The notes beneath the pieces were generated by a model. That model was given only the letters and a program-made list of their open reading frames with translations. It searched no databases and had not been told where the DNA came from. From positions 8,080 to 72,079 of the IMG/VR virus record IMGVR_UViG_3300033073_000980: DNA of 64,000 bases. One strand, given 5' to 3'. This DNA comes from a virus (Duplodnaviria > Caudoviricetes). A program made the position numbers and the translations under genes. Positions within the stretch are counted from its first letter, which is position 1. The number at the start of each line of letters is the position of its first letter. This document shows positions 1 to 50,511 of this stretch, piece after piece.

Positions 1-453
1 AACCAGCTCTTCATATAGAGAGTAGTCAAACGAGATAGCAATCATATCAACATCCAACTTACTATCTAGAGTCTGATAGCATTCAACAATCTCTTCATAG
101 GTCTTTCCTTGAACTACTGCAATGCTTTTTCCTTTAGCGGTTGGTCTATGAAACTGATTCCAAACATAAGCATTAAAGATTGTTCTCTTAGCATCTTCCA
201 AAGCATCTGGAATGATATACCAGGTAGGTTCGAGCTTGTTATTCCATTCAAAGAACTTCTTCATATCAAAAGCTTCTCCTAATTCGAAGATTGAGTTATC
301 CAAAATAACTTCTCGCTCTTTGCAAGCTTTTGTGAATAACTCTTTGTAAGTTTCATCTTCTTCAAGCAAATGCACCAAGCAATAATCATAATCAGTCTTT
401 GACTGAACAAAGTAGAAAAGCCCGGTAGGTGATTCGTGTGCTATCTTGATCAT
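1..453 (-). CDS. DpdA/TGT-like 7-deazaguanine transglycosylase, N-terminal 151 aa (runs off window edge)
   Basis: Not in ORF track. Manual translation from ATG at 453: MIKIAHESPTGLF...VILDNSIFELG...WYIIPDALED...IAVVQGKT...DMIAISFD. The DNS-x-F, PD and VVQG motifs resemble the TGT/DpdA TIM barrel. TAATG overlap with folE. Confidence 0.6.
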   Translation of the reverse strand, partial: MIKIAHESPTGLFYFVQSKTDYDYCLVHLLEEDETYKELFTKACKEREVILDNSIFELGEAFDMKKFFEWNNKLEPTWYIIPDALEDAKRTIFNAYVWNQFHRPTAKGKSIAVVQGKTYEEIVECYQTLDSKLDVDMIAISFDYSLYEELV

Positions 454-1166: not shown

Positions 1167-1493
1167 TTATAATCCAGCAACAGAAGTTCTTTCTGCCTCC
1201 ACTCTTGTCTGTCCTTCACTGTAAATGATCTTTCCTTTCTCATGCTCATTAGGATTGTATCGGATATTAGTCTTATAATAGTACAAAGGACCTTCGTAAT
1301 CGAAAGTCTCAGTCCCTAATTGCTTACCTAATTCAATCGCTTTTGGCCCAGTTATTCTTCTAGGTCCGTTGAATGATCTAAAATCGATATCTAATACACG
1401 ATACCACTTACCGTTGTTCATTTGAACTTCACACGCCCAAGCAGTATTAAAATCGAATACTAATTTACCAGTATTGCCTCTTTTTTCTCCCAT
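1167..1493 (-). CDS. hypothetical protein
   Basis: 108-aa ORF directly behind a promoter motif (1497-1528). Confidence 0.7.
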   Translation of the reverse strand: MGEKRGNTGKLVFDFNTAWACEVQMNNGKWYRVLDIDFRSFNGPRRITGPKAIELGKQLGTETFDYEGPLYYYKTNIRYNPNEHEKGKIIYSEGQTRVEAERTSVAGL

Positions 1494-1496
1494 GCC

Positions 1497-1528
1497 TAAA
1501 TATACGAATTAATCTGGAAGTAAGCCAG
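1497..1528 (-). promoter_or_regulatory. class 1 promoter (TTG-N20-TAnnTT type, weak -33)
   Basis: CTGGC-N17-CGTATATTTA, 3 nt before the ATG at 1493. Confidence 0.55.
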
Positions 1529-1715
1529 CTTTTTCTACTGCTGTCCAAACTCTAGTTTTCCATAGATTAATATCTACTCCTTCAATTTCTTTAGCACCGT
1601 TAATGGTCTCTTTTGAAAGCTGAACAATGCATAGATCAAACATTCTATCTGCCTGTGCTAAATTTCCTTGTTTTGCAAACTTTCTACCTAGTTTAAATTT
1701 TTCCTTTAATGTCAT
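1509..1715 (-). CDS. hypothetical helical protein
   Basis: Start revised from 1760 to MTLKEKFK at 1715, which lies just downstream of the promoter at 1730-1761. Confidence 0.65.
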   Translation of the reverse strand: MTLKEKFKLGRKFAKQGNLAQADRMFDLCIVQLSKETINGAKEIEGVDINLWKTRVWTAVEKAGLLPD

Positions 1716-1729
1716 AACTACTACTTGTC

Positions 1730-1761
1730 TTAATATACAAACTTTAATTCGAATAAGCAAC
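1730..1761 (-). promoter_or_regulatory. class 1 promoter
   Basis: GTTGC-N17-TGTATATTAA. Confidence 0.65.
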
Positions 1762-1947
1762 TGCTGTATGCTCTAATTCTTCTTTAGCTAATTGGTGATC
1801 CAAGGTCAGAAATAAACAAAGGTCTCGGAGCTGCTGGGGATAGTACAAAGCCATTTCCACCAGCAGTTCGTCCTCCATCGAGTCAAAGACCTGGCTGAAG
1901 TTTGGTACTTCTTCAGCAAGTTGTTGTTTCTTTTTACTCTTCTTCAT
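1744..1947 (-). CDS. hypothetical protein
   Basis: 67-aa ORF, 14-nt overlap with upstream small gene. Confidence 0.55.
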   Translation of the reverse strand: MKKSKKKQQLAEEVPNFSQVFDSMEDELLVEMALYYPQQLRDLCLFLTLDHQLAKEELEHTAVAYSN

Positions 1948-2053
1948 CAGCTACATAAGTCTTTTTCATAACTGGTTTTGGTTTCCTTGCTTTCAAAGAA
2001 TCCAACCATACTTTCAAAACGTGTAGCTTTTGTAAATTTGATGTCTTGCTCAT
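1934..2053 (-). CDS. small basic protein (39 aa)
   Basis: Manual ORF MSKTSNLQKLHVLKVWLDSLKARKPKPVMKKTYVADEEE; ATGA overlap with the SLT stop. Confidence 0.6.
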   Translation of the reverse strand: MSKTSNLQKLHVLKVWLDSLKARKPKPVMKKTYVADEEE

Positions 2054-2577
2054 AATTTAGTCCATTTATTTTTATAATCTTTATTCGATGTTGCGTACTG
2101 GGCGTAAGCGTTTCTGATAGGTTGACCGGAGTTATAAGCACCGCATGCTAATGTCCAGTCTCCATGAATTGAATACCACTTACGAAGCATCTGCATACTA
2201 ATCTTAACATTCAGATCAATATTAGTCTTCAATTCTTTCTCGTTGATGTGCCGTCTAACAAAAGGTCTAGCCCAACGGGTAATAATCTGCATCGGTCCAA
2301 CTGCTCCTGCAAATGACTTCTGATAAGGATTATAATCAAAATCAAAAGGGCCTTGGTATCGAGTTTCTAGATAAGCAACATTGTAAGCAATATGCTTTGG
2401 AATGTCGAAACTATCACTCCAGTGCTCAATCGACTCATACATCTGGAGTGAGATAGTTCCGTTAGCTAAATCTAAACGCTCTTCGAAGTAATCCATCCGA
2501 CGATCAATATTGAAGTACATTGCTCCAATAATTCCGAGGATGATAACCAAATACCAGTTTTTTAATTTAGCAAACAT
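2050..2577 (-). CDS. lytic transglycosylase (SLT domain) with N-terminal membrane anchor
   Basis: VAYLETRY (catalytic E), AVGPMQII, NVKISMQML, ACGAYNSG; hydrophobic N-terminus YLVIILGIIGAMYF. Confidence 0.9.
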   Translation of the reverse strand: MFAKLKNWYLVIILGIIGAMYFNIDRRMDYFEERLDLANGTISLQMYESIEHWSDSFDIPKHIAYNVAYLETRYQGPFDFDYNPYQKSFAGAVGPMQIITRWARPFVRRHINEKELKTNIDLNVKISMQMLRKWYSIHGDWTLACGAYNSGQPIRNAYAQYATSNKDYKNKWTKL

Positions 2578-2585
2578 AATTAGTC

Positions 2586-2903
2586 TTATTTAGTTACTAC
2601 AGGGGCAGCAATCTTAGAAGCATACATCTTAAAGATGATTCGACCTACTGAGTCACTATAAATAGTATAGCTTCCAGTCTTGCGATCCATCATTATTAAT
2701 TTGTCTTCTGAATCGATTGCAATTCGAACTTCCTTATTGAGGATAGTTTCGTTAACTGCTTTTGGCTTCATCTTCAATTCATTGAAGTAGTAGCCCAAAC
2801 CAAAGCCGGCAATCAAAGTTGCTGCAACGATGGTGATGTTCATGAATCGGTTGAAGGTAGTCTTCAACTTTGCTTTTTGTTCTGGTGTGATTAGGTTTTT
2901 CAT
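2586..2903 (-). CDS. single-TM membrane protein
   Basis: TM ITIVAATLIAGFGLGYYF. Confidence 0.7.
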   Translation of the reverse strand: MKNLITPEQKAKLKTTFNRFMNITIVAATLIAGFGLGYYFNELKMKPKAVNETILNKEVRIAIDSEDKLIMMDRKTGSYTIYSDSVGRIIFKMYASKIAAPVVTK

Positions 2904-2909
2904 AACTTA

Positions 2910-3206
2910 TTATTTTTCTTTTAGGTATTTTATTGCATTTACAACTTCCTGGCAAAGCTCATATACTTCGTTCTCTACTAGGATTTCTAAATTCTTCTCT
3001 AAAGTTACGATAAATTCTTCAGGATTGCAAGTCAAATCATAAAATTCATCTTCTTCTTCCATCTCTACTGAGATGATATACACATTTTTTTTAGTAGCAT
3101 CTAAATTTGCCAGTATTGCATTGCATATAATAGCTGCAAGGTTAGCATCTCGTTGTTTAACTTTCTCTATGAAGTCAGCCTCTGATTTAACTCTATAGGT
3201 TCTCAT
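2910..3206 (-). CDS. hypothetical protein
   Basis: 98-aa ORF, acidic, C-terminal EVYELCQEV helix. Confidence 0.7.
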   Translation of the reverse strand: MRTYRVKSEADFIEKVKQRDANLAAIICNAILANLDATKKNVYIISVEMEEEDEFYDLTCNPEEFIVTLEKNLEILVENEVYELCQEVVNAIKYLKEK

Positions 3207-3207
3207 A

Positions 3208-3363
3208 TTAGAAAAGATCTAGAGGGTTTCTTTTAAGTTTGTAGCCTTTCATCTTAGTTGCTTTCTCATCTGCTTTTAAAAGGTCAGTTGCCATTCTCTC
3301 AAGATGTTTCTTTTTTTCCCGTTCCTTGTTTTCAAGGATCTTTTCATGCTTTGTCTTTTTCAT
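3208..3363 (-). CDS. small basic protein (51 aa)
   Basis: Manual ORF MKKTKHEKILENKEREKKKHLERMATDLLKADEK...LDLF; fills the gap exactly. Confidence 0.6.
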   Translation of the reverse strand: MKKTKHEKILENKEREKKKHLERMATDLLKADEKATKMKGYKLKRNPLDLF

Positions 3364-42843: not shown

Positions 42844-43224
42844 TTATCCTATTTCTTCGTCTAAGTGATCTGGTATTCCGTCTCCGTCAACGTCGCAAAT
42901 TTCAACGTATCCGAATGCTTTCATGAATTTAGCAACCCTTTCCTTCAGGTCGTTATCACTATCCTCAAACCAATCTTCTTTTAGATTGTCGTGATCTAGA
43001 ATATTAATTAGAGCATCGTAAAGCTTATCAACATCTTCTACTAAATAAATATCAGATGCTGCAAAGTCTAAACTAAAAGCATAGTCGTCAATTTGAGGAA
43101 TTTTTAATAAATCATCAATCTTGCCGATCTTCTTTTCTTTTAAAGGCATTTCCTTTCCAAACTTGTGGAAGTACTCACCTACATAGATGTACCCTTGTCC
43201 TTCTTTTAATTGAAACTCACTCAT
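42844..43224 (-). CDS. degenerate GIY-YIG/T5orf172-like protein with DxDxDG motif
   Basis: GYIYV...KKIGK...EDWF; C-terminal DVDGDGIPDHLD. Confidence 0.45.
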   Translation of the reverse strand: MSEFQLKEGQGYIYVGEYFHKFGKEMPLKEKKIGKIDDLLKIPQIDDYAFSLDFAASDIYLVEDVDKLYDALINILDHDNLKEDWFEDSDNDLKERVAKFMKAFGYVEICDVDGDGIPDHLDEEIG

Positions 43225-44057
43225 TACTTTAATAAATTATAATATTCTCTGAAATGTTTAATTCTGTCTGCCAGGCCAATAGTACCTCCGTTAACTCTTT
43301 TAGTAACAGCCGTAACTGTTGCATCATCAGCTCCTCTGTCGCAGATACCCCAAAGTCTGTTTGTATCAAAGAACCAAGCAGCAGATGCTAAAGGATACTT
43401 TGTAGCTACTAAATCAGGATTGGCTGTTGTATCTTCAGGTACAAACTTATCAAAAGCCACGTAGTTTGCTTTTCCAGTTAATTGGATATAACCACGACCT
43501 CTATATTTGTAACCTTCTCCTGTTGCTTCAGGACCGTTACCCATTCTACCTCCGTAAACTCTTGAGGCAATCTTCTCTGGCTTACGAGCATAAGCTTCAG
43601 CTAAAGCCAAAGTTGGAAAGTATCTTCCAAAAATACCCATCAAACCTTTTGAAGAATAGTTTAGATTCTCCTGAACAGCTTTGAAACCTCCTGATTCATG
43701 ACCACATTGTGCCAAGAAATGGGCAAGTCTCAAAGGAGATGTTATATTAAATTTAGCAGCAGTCTCAGGAATCTGAGCAAGTACTGCATCGGGAACGTGT
43801 CCCTTTAGATTGTTTAACTTTAATGGACCTGATGAGATTGGAGCTGCAGCTGGTGCAGGGGCAGTACCTGGAGTTATCCCGAACATTTTATTCCATGTTC
43901 CGTCTCCTACTATACCGTCAGGAGTTAAGCCATTGGCTGCTTGCCAAGCCTTAACTGCCTCTTCAGTCTTAGGTCCAAAGTTTCCTATAGGCTCCACGCC
44001 TAATTTTACCTGGAGCTTTTTAACGTTTTCGTTATTATCACCTCTTTTTAGTAACAT
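43224..44057 (-). CDS. endolysin: peptidoglycan-binding domain + GH19-family catalytic domain
   Basis: FGPKTEEAVKAWQ...PDGIVG; LAHFLAQCGHESGGF, YRGRGYIQLTGKANY, VTKRVNGG. Confidence 0.93.
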   Translation of the reverse strand: MLLKRGDNNENVKKLQVKLGVEPIGNFGPKTEEAVKAWQAANGLTPDGIVGDGTWNKMFGITPGTAPAPAAAPISSGPLKLNNLKGHVPDAVLAQIPETAAKFNITSPLRLAHFLAQCGHESGGFKAVQENLNYSSKGLMGIFGRYFPTLALAEAYARKPEKIASRVYGGRMGNGPEATGEGYKYRGRGYIQLTGKANYVAFDKFVPEDTTANPDLVATKYPLASAAWFFDTNRLWGICDRGADDATVTAVTKRVNGGTIGLADRIKHFREYYNLLK

Positions 44058-44059
44058 AA

Positions 44060-44320
44060 TTAACCTTCTTCTTCTGGGCTTTTGTTATCTTGTTTCTTGT
44101 TAATCCATTTATCTACTGATGCAATACCAAATGATCCTAGAACCATTACCATGAAACCATCAAAAATAATCTTGTTAAGAACAAACTCCTTACCAGAATA
44201 ACCAGTGATGATGTCTACAATAAATGCAATACATAGCATAAAGAATGCAACAAATCCTACAACACTTTTTTCATTAATGCTGTTGTTGTCGTCGAATAAT
44301 TGTGAGAAAAATTTTTTCAT
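44060..44320 (-). CDS. 2-TM membrane protein (holin/antiholin-like)
   Basis: Two TMs, charged termini, directly upstream of the endolysin. Confidence 0.6.
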   Translation of the reverse strand: MKKFFSQLFDDNNSINEKSVVGFVAFFMLCIAFIVDIITGYSGKEFVLNKIIFDGFMVMVLGSFGIASVDKWINKKQDNKSPEEEG

Positions 44321-44786: not shown

Positions 44787-45770
44787 TCAGTAAGTCACCT
44801 GTCCGGCATAGCCTGGAGCAATAATATACAAACTTAATGTACCTCCTGAAGTTAAAGTTGAGGTTGTATATGTAGATACTCCCGGGTAAGTAGCTCTTGT
44901 GTTTATTTTTGCTGCTTTGATAGCATTATATTCAGCAGTAGTGAAAATACGAACATCAGGAGCTGTTCTCCATCTAGAAAATAAGCCAGCCTTCCTCGCT
45001 GCCACGTAATATTTATCTGCTATTGAAATCGCCCCGTCATCATTAACATCAAACATATGATAAGACAATCCATTCCTAACTGTCTTCCCTAATATTAAAT
45101 TAGATACTCCTTGAATGTCTGTGTTGTTATAAGCTTGAACTCTGGTTGGGGCTGATATTTCAATATAATATTCTTTTGAAGGATCATAACTTTCCGAAAT
45201 AGAGTAGTACCCTGATGAATTAGTGTAGATAGTTTTGTATAAAGTCCATGAAGAAGTTGTAACTAGGTATTCAAATTCCAATACATAAGCAAGGCTAGAA
45301 GTTCCATTTAAGTCATTCCATCTTCCTCCAGATACAAATTGAACATAATCTTCATTACCTGAGTTATTTGGTTCTCCTGAGTTCCAGTTAGTGTAGGAAT
45401 AAGTTTCTCCTGTGACCCATCTCCAAGTTCCCTCTGTTACTTCATCTGTAAGTCCGATCCACCCTGAGGGCCATAATCCGAATATGAACGATTGCTCTCC
45501 TGAGCTTGTAATTGTTACTAAATGCCCGCCCATATTTGCACAATTAGACTTCGCTATTTGCCAGTTTGCCGTTCCTGTAGATCTATAATAAGAATGCCCG
45601 TTGTAGTTCTGCTGGTTAGTGAATCCAGTGATAGTTGAGTTTGTTCTTCTATAAAGTTTAACAGCAACGTTATTTGCTCCTGATCCGTTTGCATTATACA
45701 AATACCCTGAATAAGTAAATTGTCCTAGCAGAGAATTTGTTAATAGTAAAAATACAACAAGTAATCTCAT
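44787..45770 (-). CDS. secreted C-type lectin + dockerin-like protein
   Basis: SP ...SLLG|Q; CTL motifs YNGHSYY, WIGLTD, WNSGEPNN, WND; dockerin-like NLILG...DVNDDGAISIAD. Confidence 0.85.
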   Translation of the reverse strand: MRLLVVFLLLTNSLLGQFTYSGYLYNANGSGANNVAVKLYRRTNSTITGFTNQQNYNGHSYYRSTGTANWQIAKSNCANMGGHLVTITSSGEQSFIFGLWPSGWIGLTDEVTEGTWRWVTGETYSYTNWNSGEPNNSGNEDYVQFVSGGRWNDLNGTSSLAYVLEFEYLVTTSSWTLYKTIYTNSSGYYSISESYDPSKEYYIEISAPTRVQAYNNTDIQGVSNLILGKTVRNGLSYHMFDVNDDGAISIADKYYVAARKAGLFSRWRTAPDVRIFTTAEYNAIKAAKINTRATYPGVSTYTTSTLTSGGTLSLYIIAPGYAGQVTY

Positions 45771-47095
45771 AATAGTAATTTAGCTCCCATTAATATTTGG
45801 TAGTTAAGTACACTCTGACTAGCAACATAAGTTCCACCTCCGGTTAATCCAACTCCAAACGTCTTAGTTAGTTTATAATTAAAGTTAAAGAAGGGAATGA
45901 TGATTGGCTTTGCTTCAAAGAGAGACTCTGTGTAATACTTGGTATACGGTGAATATACACAGGCTGCTATTATAGTAGCATCCAAAGCTCTTGCTAACTT
46001 ACCTTTGTACATAAACCCTCCAATAGCTAAAGTTGAAATCATTTCTTCTCCGTAAAGGTTTCCATAGGTTCCAGCTGCTCCGTAGAGTGCTGTAAAGTTT
46101 TTAACTGAGTTTACTCTGACTGCTAATGCTGTATTAGACCAAGATTTAGGTAAGATACCAAAAGCATCTGAAACTACATTGATGTGTTTGTTTCCTTTTT
46201 TGTTAACTCCAATCCAGGATCTCATTACTGAAAGGTTTCCAATCCGGGCATTAACCATGTAATCGGCTGAGAATCCTAATGAGGCTGTTCCGTCTCCTTT
46301 TACTCTAGTGAAGGACATAGTTCCTCTTGCATCCCTAGATCCATCATCTGCTTTTTGAACTCCAACAATATCTCCTGTAACTAAGATTGCAGGCTTGGCA
46401 ACTTCTGCTTTTGCTTTAGAGGTTGACTTAGCTGTTGAGTTAGAAGACTCTTTCTGAGTTTCGGTCTTCTGTTCTTCTACTTGCTGTTCGGTTGGCTTGT
46501 CTTCTGTTTTCGGTTCTTCTGTTTGTCCTTGTCCAGACCCGGAACCGCCGCCATTGCCACTGCTACCAGAAGAGGACCCACTGCTACCACTAGAACTAGT
46601 ATTGCCTGAAGTATTGCTTGCATCGGAGTTCTGGTTCGTATTCGACTGAGGATTTCCATCTTCTTGTTTGTTATTTGAAGTACTTACCGATCCGGTACCT
46701 GTTGAAGTTGCACCTCCTACATTTGTTCCTACTGATGTAAATGACCCAACGTTGGCAATAGAATTTAAGTTCATTACACTATTAACAACGTTTGAAGCCA
46801 AGTTACTCGATGTGGTCGTTGTAGTTGTTGCTACTGCCCCTTGACATGGAGAGGTTGACTTGTATTTATTATAAGTATCAAGCATCCATAAATCAAAGGT
46901 TCCATCTTGTAGTTCAACATAGCTAAACGTTCTAATCTGATTATAATAAACAACCACAATCGGGCTATTCATATCAGCGGTTATAAACTTGCTTTCTTTC
47001 GTACAAGGATCAATATACGAATAAAGAAAGGACTGCCCGTTTAGAGACAGTCCTATCATAAATAAAAATAATAATATTTTAGTTTTTAAAGACAC
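45767..47095 (-). CDS. exported protein with Ser/Gly/Thr linker and predicted outer-membrane beta-barrel C-terminus
   Basis: SP ...SLNG|Q; low-complexity linker; alternating strands ending FNYKLTKTFGVGLTGG...YQILMGAKLLL. Confidence 0.65.
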   Translation of the reverse strand: MSLKTKILLFLFMIGLSLNGQSFLYSYIDPCTKESKFITADMNSPIVVVYYNQIRTFSYVELQDGTFDLWMLDTYNKYKSTSPCQGAVATTTTTTSSNLASNVVNSVMNLNSIANVGSFTSVGTNVGGATSTGTGSVSTSNNKQEDGNPQSNTNQNSDASNTSGNTSSSGSSGSSSGSSGNGGGSGSGQGQTEEPKTEDKPTEQQVEEQKTETQKESSNSTAKSTSKAKAEVAKPAILVTGDIVGVQKADDGSRDARGTMSFTRVKGDGTASLGFSADYMVNARIGNLSVMRSWIGVNKKGNKHINVVSDAFGILPKSWSNTALAVRVNSVKNFTALYGAAGTYGNLYGEEMISTLAIGGFMYKGKLARALDATIIAACVYSPYTKYYTESLFEAKPIIIPFFNFNYKLTKTFGVGLTGGGTYVASQSVLNYQILMGAKLLL

Positions 47096-47774
47096 CGTTC
47101 CTGATTAAGCTTTCAATTACTTTAGTTGTAGCAGTCTCTAAAGACTTTCTAGTTGCTTTACCAACAGTGCTTTGTGAAAACTTCATATCAAGACTCTTCA
47201 GGAATGATTCTCCTACTTTAGTTGCTTCTCCCTCTCCTGAGCCGATGTATACTTGTCCGGTCATTGCATCCACGAACCGAACTTGGAGGCGTAAGAAAGT
47301 AGTAACGACAACTTTGCTCTTACCTTTCTCAACAGTCTCGTCTTCATCAACAGCAAAATCGGCCACAGTAACATAAACAAAGTAACGAGCAGCTTTAATT
47401 TTACCCTTTCCATCAATGGGCTCTTCGAAGACTCCTTTCTTTGAGGCTTTGAATTGGGTAACCATCCGTTCTTTGATTTCGGACTTTTCTTCGGTGAATA
47501 TAAATCTTCCTGTTTCATCTAAATAATCTAATACTGATTCTGCAAAACCTAAACCAACATTCTTTTCTTGAAGGTCTGGGTATAGAGCTAGAACCTTGGT
47601 CATATCAACGTTAATTACCTGAACAGCATATTTTAAACTGTCTGTGTAATTAGATACTGTTGAGATGTCTTTGGTCTCAATAACATCCTGCTCGGTGGTA
47701 GTCTTCATAGAACCACATCCGGCTAATGTCATAACCACCAAGGTCATAAACTTATTGAACCATTTTTTTACCAT
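47079..47774 (-). CDS. CsgG-family lipoprotein
   Basis: Lipobox LAG|C; GFAESVLDYLDETGRFIFTE, YFVYVTVADF, LQVRFVDAMTGQVY. Confidence 0.75.
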   Translation of the reverse strand: MVKKWFNKFMTLVVMTLAGCGSMKTTTEQDVIETKDISTVSNYTDSLKYAVQVINVDMTKVLALYPDLQEKNVGLGFAESVLDYLDETGRFIFTEEKSEIKERMVTQFKASKKGVFEEPIDGKGKIKAARYFVYVTVADFAVDEDETVEKGKSKVVVTTFLRLQVRFVDAMTGQVYIGSGEGEATKVGESFLKSLDMKFSQSTVGKATRKSLETATTKVIESLIRNGVFKN

Positions 47775-48094
47775 GGATCTTCTTCTTTAGCGGGTTCAGC
47801 TTTAGCAGGAGCAGCTGCTGGCTTTTCAACTACACGCTCTTTAATGATTGTGTTTGTTCCACCACCTTGCTTAACTTGCTGTTTGTTCTCTTGATTCTGT
47901 TGAACGTTAATTACAACAGGAGCAGCAGAACTAGCAGGAGCTGCTTGTTCAGTTTTAACTTCTTCTTTAGGCTCGTCACCACCGCCTAAGTGGGTTACAA
48001 ACCAAGCACCGCCGGCTGTAACTGCTGTAGTGATAGCACCAATGATTGCTTTCTTGGTAGCTGACATTACGCTTTCTTCTTTTTCTTCTGACAT
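47768..48094 (-). CDS. single-TM protein with low-complexity periplasmic stalk
   Basis: TM AIIGAITTAVTAGGAWFV; Ala/Pro/Glu/Gln-rich, ends EEDPW. Confidence 0.7.
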   Translation of the reverse strand: MSEEKEESVMSATKKAIIGAITTAVTAGGAWFVTHLGGGDEPKEEVKTEQAAPASSAAPVVINVQQNQENKQQVKQGGGTNTIIKERVVEKPAAAPAKAEPAKEEDPW

Positions 48095-48095
48095 A

Positions 48096-49988
48096 TTATT
48101 TATTTATAATTATTTTTGAAGTTGAGATTTTAGTATCTGTTTTTACAGACATTAAATAAAAGCCGTTATCTAAAGGAGTTAAATTTACTAAGTATTTGTA
48201 TTCTCCAGCAGGCATTTTGGTATTGATAACCTCCATTACCTCTCTTCCAATCAAATCACTAACAGATACTTCAGTTTGAGATTCTTGCTCAACTTTAAAT
48301 TGAACCATTACCTCACCTTGGGTTGGGTTAGGAAAGATAATAACTTCTCCTAAGTCGGTCAACTTAACAGGCTTATTAATTCTTCTTACTTCAATTACTC
48401 CCATGGCTGGAGTGATGTTCATATCTCTTGCATCATCACCTCCAACAAATTTAGGACCGGTCCAGATTGCAGCACTACCCCATTCTGATTGAGGCTTCTT
48501 AGCAATGAATTGCATAGTTAAGATCTGCTCACCATCGTTGATTAATTGATTACCTTTTAAGTCAGCAGCACCAAAAGCAACTACTCCGTTATCAGGGCTA
48601 GTGTATGAAGTCCAATTCATCATCTTTTCAGTCAAGTCAATTTTCTTGAACTCAAGTAATGCTGTGTCGTACTTTAACTCTAATTGAACTGCACCTAACT
48701 GTTTTCCGTTAGTAAGCATCTTAACAGGAACGTTAACTAAGTTACCTTCATCAACTTTAACCTTAGGCATATTAACTTCAATAGTCTCAGTTACATCATC
48801 ATACTGAACTGTGTTATCAATAATGTAATTCTTAGCATTGGTTGGGTTGATAATCTTAATAGGAGTCAAACGAGCCATCTTAAAGCCAGTTGCGTTTGCA
48901 TCTCCTTTAACTGCTACATAGTAAGTAATTGAATCCTTACCATCAATTGAGTAAGTCAAGTTATTAACAGTAGAGTAAGTAGAAGTTAAGTTAGTAGCTG
49001 CTCCATTGATTGCATTAAATTCGGCAACAGTGAAGAACATTACATCCTTTTTAGAATTAGGCCAAGCATTAAATCTACCTGCCAATCTTCCATATACTGA
49101 ATAAACATCTACAATGCTGATTGTTCCATCAGTTCCGTTAACGTCCATTGTGTAGTAATCAAATCCTGAAGGAGTGTATTGAGCTAAGACTGCTTGGTTG
49201 ATCTTCTGTGCATCAGCAGTTGAGAATACTGAACCAGGAGTCATTGTATCTCCTTTGATTGCCATTCTAACATCCCAGTAGGTAGTATCTAAGAATTTTC
49301 TGAATACAACATGACCTAGTGAGTTAGTTGCTTTAGCTTCTACTTGAGTCCAGGTTGAAGAACCTTTTGCTCTTTTCTCTAAAGATACCCACAAGTTCTT
49401 AGCATCTGAACCTGTAACGTTCTTAAACTTAGCAGCAAATCTTAACACCTTCTGATTGAAACGACCACCGTAAGAATAAACTACCAAAGTAGTATCATTA
49501 CCCCAGTTAGTAGCAGCTTTGTTTGCAAATGATTTAACTCCGGCTACTTTTAAAGTCTTAATAGAATCTAAGTTGTTCCAGATAGCTTCTCCGGCATGAG
49601 TGAAAGTTAAATCAAAGGTTGCTCCATCAGAATAATTGAAAGTTGAGTTAGTACCTGTGTAAACAACAGTAACTGTTAAGAACCCTTGAGCATTACTATC
49701 TACATACTGTAAGTACTGGTCTGTAGTAGAAATCTTCAATGTAGGAACAACTCCGGTGAATGCAGTGTTATCGTAGTAAATACGGTACTGCATACCTGTA
49801 ATCTTCTCAGAAGTAGATGTGTTGTAAAAATAAAGAGGGGCAACAGTTTGTCCGACAGTAGTTGTAGCTACTTGATAACCAGAATCAATTACTACCCAGT
49901 GCCCTGTTCCAGGTGAGGTTGATGCTGATTGTGCCGATACTCCGAAAACGGCTAAGGCCGTTAGAAGAAATGCGATGAGTTTTTTCAT
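48096..49988 (-). CDS. T9SS type A cargo: cohesin-like, dockerin-like, cohesin, CTD (scaffoldin-like)
   Basis: SP ...GVSA|Q; ITGMQYRIYYD; DVNGTDGTISIVD...KGDAN; VNVPV...LGAVQLELKYDTALLEF; IFPNPTQG...DLIGREV...NGFYLMSV...KIIINK. Confidence 0.85.
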   Translation of the reverse strand: MKKLIAFLLTALAVFGVSAQSASTSPGTGHWVVIDSGYQVATTTVGQTVAPLYFYNTSTSEKITGMQYRIYYDNTAFTGVVPTLKISTTDQYLQYVDSNAQGFLTVTVVYTGTNSTFNYSDGATFDLTFTHAGEAIWNNLDSIKTLKVAGVKSFANKAATNWGNDTTLVVYSYGGRFNQKVLRFAAKFKNVTGSDAKNLWVSLEKRAKGSSTWTQVEAKATNSLGHVVFRKFLDTTYWDVRMAIKGDTMTPGSVFSTADAQKINQAVLAQYTPSGFDYYTMDVNGTDGTISIVDVYSVYGRLAGRFNAWPNSKKDVMFFTVAEFNAINGAATNLTSTYSTVNNLTYSIDGKDSITYYVAVKGDANATGFKMARLTPIKIINPTNAKNYIIDNTVQYDDVTETIEVNMPKVKVDEGNLVNVPVKMLTNGKQLGAVQLELKYDTALLEFKKIDLTEKMMNWTSYTSPDNGVVAFGAADLKGNQLINDGEQILTMQFIAKKPQSEWGSAAIWTGPKFVGGDDARDMNITPAMGVIEVRRINKPVKLTDLGEVIIFPNPTQGEVMVQFKVEQESQTEVSVSDLIGREVMEVINTKMPAGEYKYLVNLTPLDNGFYLMSVKTDTKISTSKIIINK

Positions 49989-50446
49989 TTTTGTATGTTA
50001 GTTAATTGAGTTATTGCATGCTGTTTTAACCAAGGTTCAGGATTGTCTAACTTGTCAATAAAGTCAAGCTCGTACCTGTAACACCATGCTTCCTCTTGCT
50101 CAGGAATTATGATGTACCCTTTCTGTAAAACATGCAAATGCAAACTCTCATGAACTAACACCACTGCAAGGTTGTTAATTGAATTTAACTGCACATCTTT
50201 TATGGCAACCAGTATCGTTCCTTTGTTTCCATAACTTCCTTCATTAGAAGAAAAACCGGAAGACCAGAACTCTACCCTCTCACAAACACTATCTAACAAC
50301 TGATACTTTTCAATATCTGTTTTTTTAATTAACTGTAATGCTGAATCTATTTTTTGATCCCATCCGTCACCGGCTTTGTCTACTTTTATTTGAGCGTAAG
50401 CTAAGTTGGCTATAAGTAACAAACTAGTTAGAAATAGACCTTTCAT
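49985..50446 (-). CDS. secreted zinc metallopeptidase-like protein
   Basis: SP ...LAYA|Q; LVHESLH plus downstream EEAWCY. Confidence 0.7.
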   Translation of the reverse strand: MKGLFLTSLLLIANLAYAQIKVDKAGDGWDQKIDSALQLIKKTDIEKYQLLDSVCERVEFWSSGFSSNEGSYGNKGTILVAIKDVQLNSINNLAVVLVHESLHLHVLQKGYIIIPEQEEAWCYRYELDFIDKLDNPEPWLKQHAITQLTNIQK

Positions 50447-50463: not shown

Positions 50464-50490
50464 AAAAAGGCCTGCGTTAACAGGCCCTTT
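50464..50490 (-). terminator. rho-independent terminator after nrdJ
   Basis: GGCCTG/CAGGCC stem, 6-nt loop, U5 on the minus strand. Confidence 0.8.
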
Positions 50491-50511
50491 CTCAAACTTT
50501 TTCGATTAAGT

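Follow-up and report, generated by a model that had tools for sequence, protein, structure and literature searches.

A phage protein with a predicted type IX secretion signal, a cohesin and a dockerin-like insert

The scaffold gene and its domains

We examined a 64,000-nucleotide stretch (the window) of virus record IMGVR_UViG_3300033073_000980, which makes up most of a 72-kb IMG/VR viral contig with a CheckV completeness of 44%, and followed up one gene in it, here called the scaffold gene. An earlier note, made from the letters of the window, had read its product as a phage protein addressed to the host type IX secretion system (T9SS), with two cohesins, a beta-sandwich, a permuted dockerin and a type A C-terminal sorting domain (CTD). 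The gene is one intact open reading frame (ORF) of 630 amino acids (aa) at 48096..49988 on the minus strand, exactly where that note had placed it, and it sits in a tightly packed gene array running all in one direction, between replication and lysis genes and not amid structural genes. Profile searches and structure models show a predicted order of Sec signal peptide, D1 domain, sandwich with a dockerin-like calcium-loop insert, true cohesin (D4), linker and type A CTD:

49932..49988 (-), aa 1-19: Sec signal peptide by sequence inspection, with predicted cleavage between VSA and Q
49449..49916 (-), aa 25-180: D1, N-terminal cohesin-like beta-sandwich, the most conserved domain (pLDDT about 90)
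49251..49448 (-), aa 181-246: first five strands of a transthyretin/CnaB-like beta-sandwich (Foldseek 2igl_A, E 6.4e-4)
48969..49250 (-), aa 247-340: dockerin-like helical insert, in which a degenerate loop 1 precedes a helix and a short helix, and a Ca-type loop 2 (aa 282-294) is followed by a further helix
48885..48968 (-), aa 341-368: last two sandwich strands, ending in invariant GDANxTG, the fission point in immuto phages (see below)
48792..48884 (-), aa 369-399: inter-part linker (pLDDT 51-61, below 50 in a second model)
48378..48791 (-), aa 400-537: D4, bona fide type I-like cohesin (PF00963, 43 bits; fold match 6kgf_C)
48342..48377 (-), aa 538-549: flexible pre-CTD linker (pLDDT below 50 at 537-546; dN/dS, the ratio of nonsynonymous to synonymous substitution rates, 0.97)
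48099..48341 (-), aa 550-630: T9SS type A CTD (PF18962, TIGR04183)

Both ends of the protein carry predicted export signals. The N terminus has a positive n-region, a hydrophobic core and the VSA-Q cleavage site, all conserved in the family as judged by inspection, not by a predictor, and the AF2 model places a helix at 2-14 with low confidence after it. Q20, the glutamine that the earlier note had seen behind the signal peptide, is kept without exception in relatives as distant as 42% identity. Glutamine at +1 is the pattern described for substrates of Bacteroidota signal peptidase I; three neighbouring Sec-type proteins also have it, and a 231-aa neighbour has a lipobox. At the C terminus, two curated models match aa 551-629 of 630 above their cut-offs, PF18962 with 45.4 bits (cut-off 27) and TIGR04183 with 43.1 bits (cut-off 23), which bears out the type A assignment; no type B CTD model was reported for the protein in the curated-model scan. 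Within the CTD, P553, P555, G581 and Y611 are invariant and N554, F564, G595 and G609 are kept at 90% or more, and AF2 folds the region as a beta-sandwich with strands from 550 to 628 (pLDDT about 80-93).

A Sec signal peptide and a CTD are both required of T9SS substrates, and the PorV shuttle recognises CTDs of type A (PMC12618676). By this rule, the scaffold protein would be expected to be exported by the host T9SS and then attached to the surface or released. Among 78 full-length phage genes, every folded domain is under purifying selection: median dN/dS was 0.065 for D1, 0.11 for the dockerin-like insert, 0.13 for the cohesin and 0.29 for the CTD, with the 12 residues before the CTD drifting neutrally at 0.97, all of which are rough values since dS is near saturation and pairs are not independent. 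A constrained CTD next to a neutral linker fits a functional secretion signal behind a linker whose sequence does not matter. With CTD scores above thresholds, purifying selection and a viral contig whose nearest cultured relatives are the 160-kb vB_FspM_immuto phages (Immutovirus, NC_055915; host Flavobacterium sp. LMO8, Baltic Sea), the sequence evidence speaks well for a host T9SS address on this phage protein, as the earlier note had read it.

The claim of two cohesins stood for the second domain and was weakened for the first. In the full-chain AF2 model, built from 61 family sequences (mean pLDDT 83.4, pTM 0.68), D4 matches type I cohesins with Z 17.3 and a root mean square deviation of 2.2 A over 137 residues (6kgf_C, VIA), and Pfam Cohesin PF00963 scores 43 bits at aa 403-507 (cut-off 24.1). 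D1 is modelled as a confident beta-sandwich whose strand rhythm matches that of the true cohesin D4, and 28 of its 30 nearest named language-model clusters are labelled Cohesin (0.92-0.93), which serves as a lead only. Its Pfam Cohesin score of 16.6 bits (E 0.009) falls below the 24.1 cut-off, its profile-profile comparison with D4 was not significant (hhalign E 0.078) and a PDB profile search with it returned nothing relevant. That D1 is a cohesin is plausible, and we call it cohesin-like.

Between these two domains, aa 181-246 and 341-368 together form one transthyretin/CnaB/SdrD-B-like sandwich, in line with the beta-sandwich of the earlier note, and the dockerin-like insert is placed between its strands five and six. 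When aa 181-400 were folded separately, the model reached a pLDDT of 83 and a pTM of 0.78, with 2igl_A as the best match of the sandwich (VIA Z 9.0, model range 1..182; Foldseek E 6.4e-4). Helices of the insert lie at 257-267, 277-281 and 292-302, in the order expected of a dockerin. Its loop 1 is degenerate (GDT...STAD), and its loop 2 is a canonical Ca-type loop, D-V-N...D, with 13 residues here and 12 in most relatives; D259, D282, N284 and D294 are invariant down to 23% identity, and G362 and D363 are also invariant. The motifs quoted for a permuted dockerin are thus present and conserved, though their order is canonical and the Pfam dockerin cut-off is missed. We rejected the permutation: VKGDAN is the last sandwich strand, and the helical segment is inserted in the sandwich in normal order.

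Profile evidence for dockerin membership stays below threshold throughout. Pfam Dockerin_1 (PF00404, cut-off 22.9) had no match in the scaffold protein. It matched five of 15 copies of the same module, all sub-threshold with a best E of 7e-4. The paralogous copy in the neighbouring lectin scored 16.3 bits (E 8.8e-4 for this genome), below the 22.9 cut-off. A module profile run against the PDB gave only non-significant dockerin matches mixed with noise, and the fold search of the 181-400 model, dominated by the host sandwich, was filled by transthyretin-like chains. Dockerin-like is a fair word for what these sequences suggest.

Module-bearing partners and the proposed surface display

The same module recurs in a second protein encoded nearby:

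44787..45770 (-): secreted C-type lectin, whose C-terminal half is a sandwich plus dockerin-like module (Lectin_C 65 bits, Dockerin_1 13-16 bits)

Residues 210-341 of the scaffold protein and the C-terminal half of this lectin are 34% identical (E 4e-15), so the module of sandwich and insert is common to both. Relatives retain this module in the protein of the lectin slot and vary its head, which can be a C-type lectin, GEVED, PA14, Lectin_C with Laminin_G_3, or unassigned. A second module-bearing gene was present in 67/67 loci with enough flank, a count that comes from related genomes and not from independent ones.

In the immuto phages, the invariant GD(A/V)NxTG marks the exact point after which the gene is divided in two. 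The N-terminal part (363 aa) stops at this motif, as the lectin does, and the C-terminal part (243 aa) has its own signal peptide, a cohesin (36.7 bits) and a CTD (34.6 bits); in such split forms the inter-part linker is replaced by a stop and a new signal peptide, and stand-alone adaptor and anchor forms also occur in other lineages. Proteins that are fused in one genome and separate in another are classic evidence for joint function. A partnership is a reasonable reading because the module is shared, the heads are swapped, the two genes co-occur in all 67 loci and the immuto gene is fissioned, which makes the recruitment of the lectin by the scaffold protein, as the earlier note had proposed, plausible and well backed by comparison; which socket would take which plug is our inference.

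A reading of the protein as a virion or intracellular component, with Ig-like or hydrophobic ends that resemble export signals by chance, would be in keeping with the habit of phages of decorating virions with Ig-like domains, and after rank 3 its BFVD structural neighbours include many that decorate tails or capsids. The first three BFVD matches are a homologue with 41% identity, which comes from an uncultured phage and bears the automatic UniProt/BFVD name 'Secretion system C-terminal sorting domain' (whole-chain TM 0.79), and two proteins of 363 and 243 aa, as long as immuto gp014 and gp015. Two curated CTD models above their cut-offs and a conserved signal peptide, neighbours that are all envelope-targeted by signal peptide, lipobox or transmembrane (TM) segment, a gene position between replication and lysis genes and the acquisition of its own signal peptide by the split C-part in immuto all speak against such a reading. 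We find it barely credible, and rejected it on signals, neighbours and position.

The reading that we favour, though with confidence only slightly above an even balance, is that the scaffold protein is a phage-made T9SS cargo, a fused adaptor and anchor that displays an exchangeable glycan- or ligand-binding head on the infected cell. Following established T9SS biology, the protein would cross the inner membrane by Sec and fold in the periplasm, the T9SS translocon and PorV shuttle would recognise its CTD, and it would reach the cell surface or the medium with the CTD cut off at the unconstrained linker. Comparative genomics suggests that it is a fusion of an adaptor (D1 plus the dockerin-like module) and an anchor (cohesin plus CTD). 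The anchor cohesin would hold the adaptor's module, in cis or between molecules, and a cohesin-type socket, probably D1, would hold the identical module of the neighbouring partner, a cap made of head and module. That head would be the C-type lectin here and PA14, GEVED or another domain in relatives. Partners without a CTD might be co-exported bound to the anchor or pass via the accompanying envelope proteins. The assembly may serve attachment or aggregation of infected cells, masking of glycan receptors against superinfection and progeny loss, or interference with the T9SS.

Several points weigh against this display reading. D1 is not demonstrably a cohesin, given its sub-threshold profile and the lack of a significant hhalign or PDB match, and the scaffold's insert misses the Pfam dockerin cut-off, with a fold search that took sandwich and insert together. 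The partners have no CTD (the immuto genome holds exactly one), which leaves their crossing of the outer membrane unexplained, and the relatedness of the counted genomes lessens the weight of the co-occurrence. Export, CTD cleavage and binding of the module by a cohesin are predictions from sequence, and the putative Flavobacterium-type host is read from the phage's nearest cultured relative.

In an extended form, the display reading would have a clade of large, widespread Flavobacteriia phages from aquatic habitats build a three-tier, cellulosome-like assembly of a CTD-tagged cohesin anchor, a cohesin-like adaptor and an exchangeable lectin/PA14/GEVED cap. The partners would exit by riding the anchor through the wide T9SS translocon, or via a phage CsgG-like lipoprotein and companion envelope proteins, and the whole would reprogram adhesion or mask glycan receptors. 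We regard this extension as tentative and rather doubtful. If true, a set of T9SS substrates encoded by a virus, and a cohesin-dockerin system in a virus, would each have their first example here. Until now, T9SS cargo has been regarded as belonging to cells, and a conserved viral cargo under selection would show Bacteroidota phages writing proteins onto the host surface by this route. The fixed docking module and its interchangeable lectin-type heads have the look of a device for an arms race or for niche tuning, and the predicted compact, natural cohesin/dockerin pair for a Gram-negative envelope could be useful for surface display. The cultured pair of immuto and Flavobacterium sp. LMO8 makes the system directly testable.

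Relatives and known systems

The scaffold family is nearly confined to viral contigs: IMG/VR held 172 confirmed loci, against two loci in about 185,000 species genomes, of which one lies on a 16-kb contig in an alphaproteobacterial metagenome-assembled genome (MAG) and is probably mis-binned, and the other on a 254-kb phage-like contig in a Bacteroidetes MAG. Near-length family matches numbered 1052; the top 120 were 87-98% identical and lay on contigs of up to 191 kb, and full-length relatives reach down to 23% identity. The family is very abundant in aquatic metagenomes, and any influence on how Flavobacteriia attach to particles or resist phages could therefore matter ecologically. In about 80 loci the gene order is kept as HESxH protein, scaffold, TM protein, lipoprotein, S-rich protein, partner and a 150-aa protein (the neighbours are described below). 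Megablast of the 8.4-kb region against phages found no match, and none of the seven module proteins had a PHROGs family.

We also observed that the two halves of the protein diverge among relatives at different rates, with a mean identity to the window of 75% for the cohesin and 56% for the CTD (anchor half, 48099-48791) against 86% for D1 and 83% for the insert (adaptor half, 48885-49916). The much faster divergence of the anchor half could reflect adaptation of the CTD to the T9SS of different hosts, or recombination between the halves.

Immuto is about 30% identical at the scaffold protein and syntenic around it, with 5'-3' exonuclease, DnaB, ribonucleotide reductase, lectin, cohesin protein and three further envelope proteins. 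At and around immuto gp013-gp015, as in the window, lie orthologous syntenic genes for lectin, adaptor, cohesin-plus-CTD anchor, TM protein, lipoprotein and S-rich protein; immuto differs in encoding adaptor and anchor separately, both behind signal peptides of their own, and in having the lectin upstream, not downstream. Its record labels these proteins only 'hypothetical' and 'cohesin domain-containing protein'. A literature search for phage-encoded T9SS cargo or phage cohesin/dockerin found no paper, and the only paper found on phages of Baltic Flavobacterium sp. LMO8 (PMC7077304) does not contain the words immuto, cohesin, lectin, dockerin or secretion.

Cellular counterparts of the domain order do exist. 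T9SS cargo of cellular Bacteroidota/FCB (Fibrobacteres–Chlorobi–Bacteroidetes) shares with the phage scaffold a (prealbumin-like)-Dockerin_1-Cohesin-Por_Secre_tail order and a type A CTD, as in the following loci:

L089, cellular cargo: beta-helix, Dockerin_1 (29.8 bits, above cut-off), Cohesin, CTD
L091, cellular cargo: PKD, Dockerin_1, Cohesin, CTD
L087, cellular genome G063: CarboxypepD_reg/SdrD_B plus Dockerin_1 in an ORF at 114-1343; Cohesin...CTD in an ORF at 1270-3348, in an overlapping frame

The L087 pair is either a cellular counterpart of the split adaptor and anchor or a single frameshifted gene. Metagenomic proteins with three to six cohesins and a CTD also exist, and a surface-attached tandem-cohesin scaffoldin with a T9SS CTD, recruiting dockerin proteins, has been inferred for Cloacimonadota (Ca. 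Stygibacter) from Antarctic-lake MAGs (PMC8542988). Among 81 sampled genomes of the class of the MAG that holds L084, cohesins occurred in nine, and several of the cohesin proteins finish in the arrangement listed above. Cellular cargo has enzyme or adhesin heads and is encoded by cellular genes, and we did not find biochemically characterised examples; the phage scaffold, in contrast, is viral, conserved in a large phage clade, accompanied by swappable lectin-type partners and built with its dockerin-like segment inside the sandwich. Because the same dockerin-cohesin-CTD tail occurs in cellular Bacteroidota cargo, these sequence comparisons indicate that the phage scaffold is a viral version of a cellular, experimentally unstudied design, its architecture borrowed and not invented. 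Hijacking of the T9SS, as the earlier note put it, would be carried out with a domain order copied from cellular T9SS cargo.

These cellular proteins also offer possible true partners for the phage modules, which could bind host surface proteins or act as spacers or stalks, making the lectin's module a stalk or an anchor for a host component while the scaffold would still be genuine T9SS cargo. A stalk role would suit the sub-threshold dockerin membership and a sandwich that resembles CnaB, SdrD and transthyretin-type stalk domains of pilins and adhesins. Against it, the fusion and fission of adaptor and anchor and the strict co-occurrence with a module-bearing partner indicate a partnership internal to the phage, and residues of the Ca loop are invariant down to 23% identity; we judge a host-partner or stalk role to be unlikely.

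Self-polymerisation, which the earlier note had proposed as leading to a surface lattice or fibre, received no specific support. With socket(s) and plug on one polypeptide, the module of one molecule could plug into the cohesin of the next and form a surface chain or lattice, with the lectin as terminator or decoration, and the same arrangement recurs in the tails of cellular cargo. In immuto, however, the plug and the CTD-linked socket are on separate proteins, which points to a defined stack of anchor, adaptor and cap and not to an open polymer, and the 31-residue linker of the window protein may equally permit binding in cis. An open polymer thus seems quite improbable to us.

The stack in the display reading has one of its closest known likenesses in the anchoring end of the clostridial cellulosome (C. 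thermocellum CipA CohI9-X-DocII, 4fl4/3kcp). The two share a type I-like cohesin fold (Z 15-17), and 4fl4 and 3kcp are among the top Foldseek matches for the whole scaffold chain. The beta-sandwich beside a Ca-loop dockerin-like module recalls X-Doc dyads, and the proposed tiers of anchor, adaptor and cap follow the logic of the cellulosome. The phage scaffold differs in its Gram-negative host and in having a T9SS CTD as its anchor in place of SLH or sortase. Its partners are lectin-type binders where cellulosomes carry enzymes, and its dockerin-like insert is sub-threshold with a degenerate loop 1.

We further noted that the 254-kb contig with the 41%-identical homologue (G001:C291) encodes a second, unrelated protein of 284 aa with a signal peptide and a type A CTD of 57.5 bits (L097, 1483-2337). 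The MAG that holds the scaffold homologue (L084) has 13 CTD matches, two of them on this phage-like contig. The T9SS cargo of such phages may not be limited to a single protein.

Neighbouring genes

The genes and features around the scaffold gene and lectin, in order of transcription, are as follows:

50464..50491 (-): terminator-like hairpin (12-bp stem and T run), placed after the ribonucleotide reductase gene and ahead of the module
49985..50446 (-): small secreted HESxH protein, 153 aa, whose stop overlaps the scaffold gene start by 4 nt
47768..48094 (-): 108-aa membrane protein with a single TM segment, its tail rich in Pro/Ala/Lys/Glu and ending in (D/E)PW (TM protein)
47079..47774 (-): 231-aa lipoprotein with lipobox LAGC, CsgG/LpoB-like by language-model neighbours only
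45767..47095 (-): 442-aa secreted protein, its long low-complexity middle rich in Ser/Gly/Thr and its C-terminal region conserved (S-rich protein)
43224-44320 (-): 86-aa membrane protein (holin candidate) and 277-aa endolysin (PG_binding_1 plus GH19-like), directly downstream of the module

Downstream of the module, the array continues gaplessly into the putative holin and endolysin genes. Several Flavobacterium phages depend on surface components related to the T9SS or to gliding. An abundant phage cargo might block or re-route the T9SS or PorV, or cap receptors, and stop gliding or the secretion of host adhesins that phages use as receptors, a form of superinfection exclusion, and the packing of the module into one array with lysis genes would fit such a role. 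Jamming, however, would call for neither swappable heads nor a cohesin, a D1 and lectin partners that strong purifying selection conserves, and the adjacency to lysis genes is not kept in immuto or in L020-type loci. We hold interference as the main function to be very doubtful.

The lipoprotein has the CsgG/HfaB and LpoB families as its nearest named Atlas clusters (0.95-0.96), a lead from language-model features only; Pfam did not detect CsgG in it, and its PDB sequence search was without match. The phage may thereby encode a channel of the outer membrane or an adaptor in the periplasm. Its identity is 76-99% across IMG/VR loci and 42-52% in immuto and L084. The TM-protein gene overlaps the lipoprotein gene in the window, and the TM protein ends in a conserved acidic (D/E/A)PW in every locus inspected; by analogy, the two are reminiscent of a periplasm-spanning stalk or a spanin-like pair. 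The S-rich protein had no family match and an empty PDB sequence search.

In the 153-aa protein, the HESxH motif is invariant in 63/63 recovered copies and is followed by a conserved EE..CY.YE, and the protein had no Pfam, NCBIfam or PHROG family match. Its sequence suggests that it may be a small zinc peptidase, which could process the scaffold or its CTD. The strong terminator-like hairpin lies 18 nt before the HESxH start codon and leaves almost no space for a promoter. Expression of the module may therefore depend on read-through, or on an unconventional promoter that overlaps the hairpin's T run. A sigma-70 promoter scan found 24 sites against 28 expected, with a model that is unsuited to Bacteroidota.

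In several relatives, extra small non-secreted genes (1-2.5 kb) lie between the scaffold and TM-protein genes:

L012 9897-11715; L021 9890-11824; L040 9860-12426; L024 4929-5897: inserts at the scaffold/TM-protein junction, one of the inserted genes being GIY-YIG homing endonuclease-like by eye

Mobile inserts seem to favour this junction.

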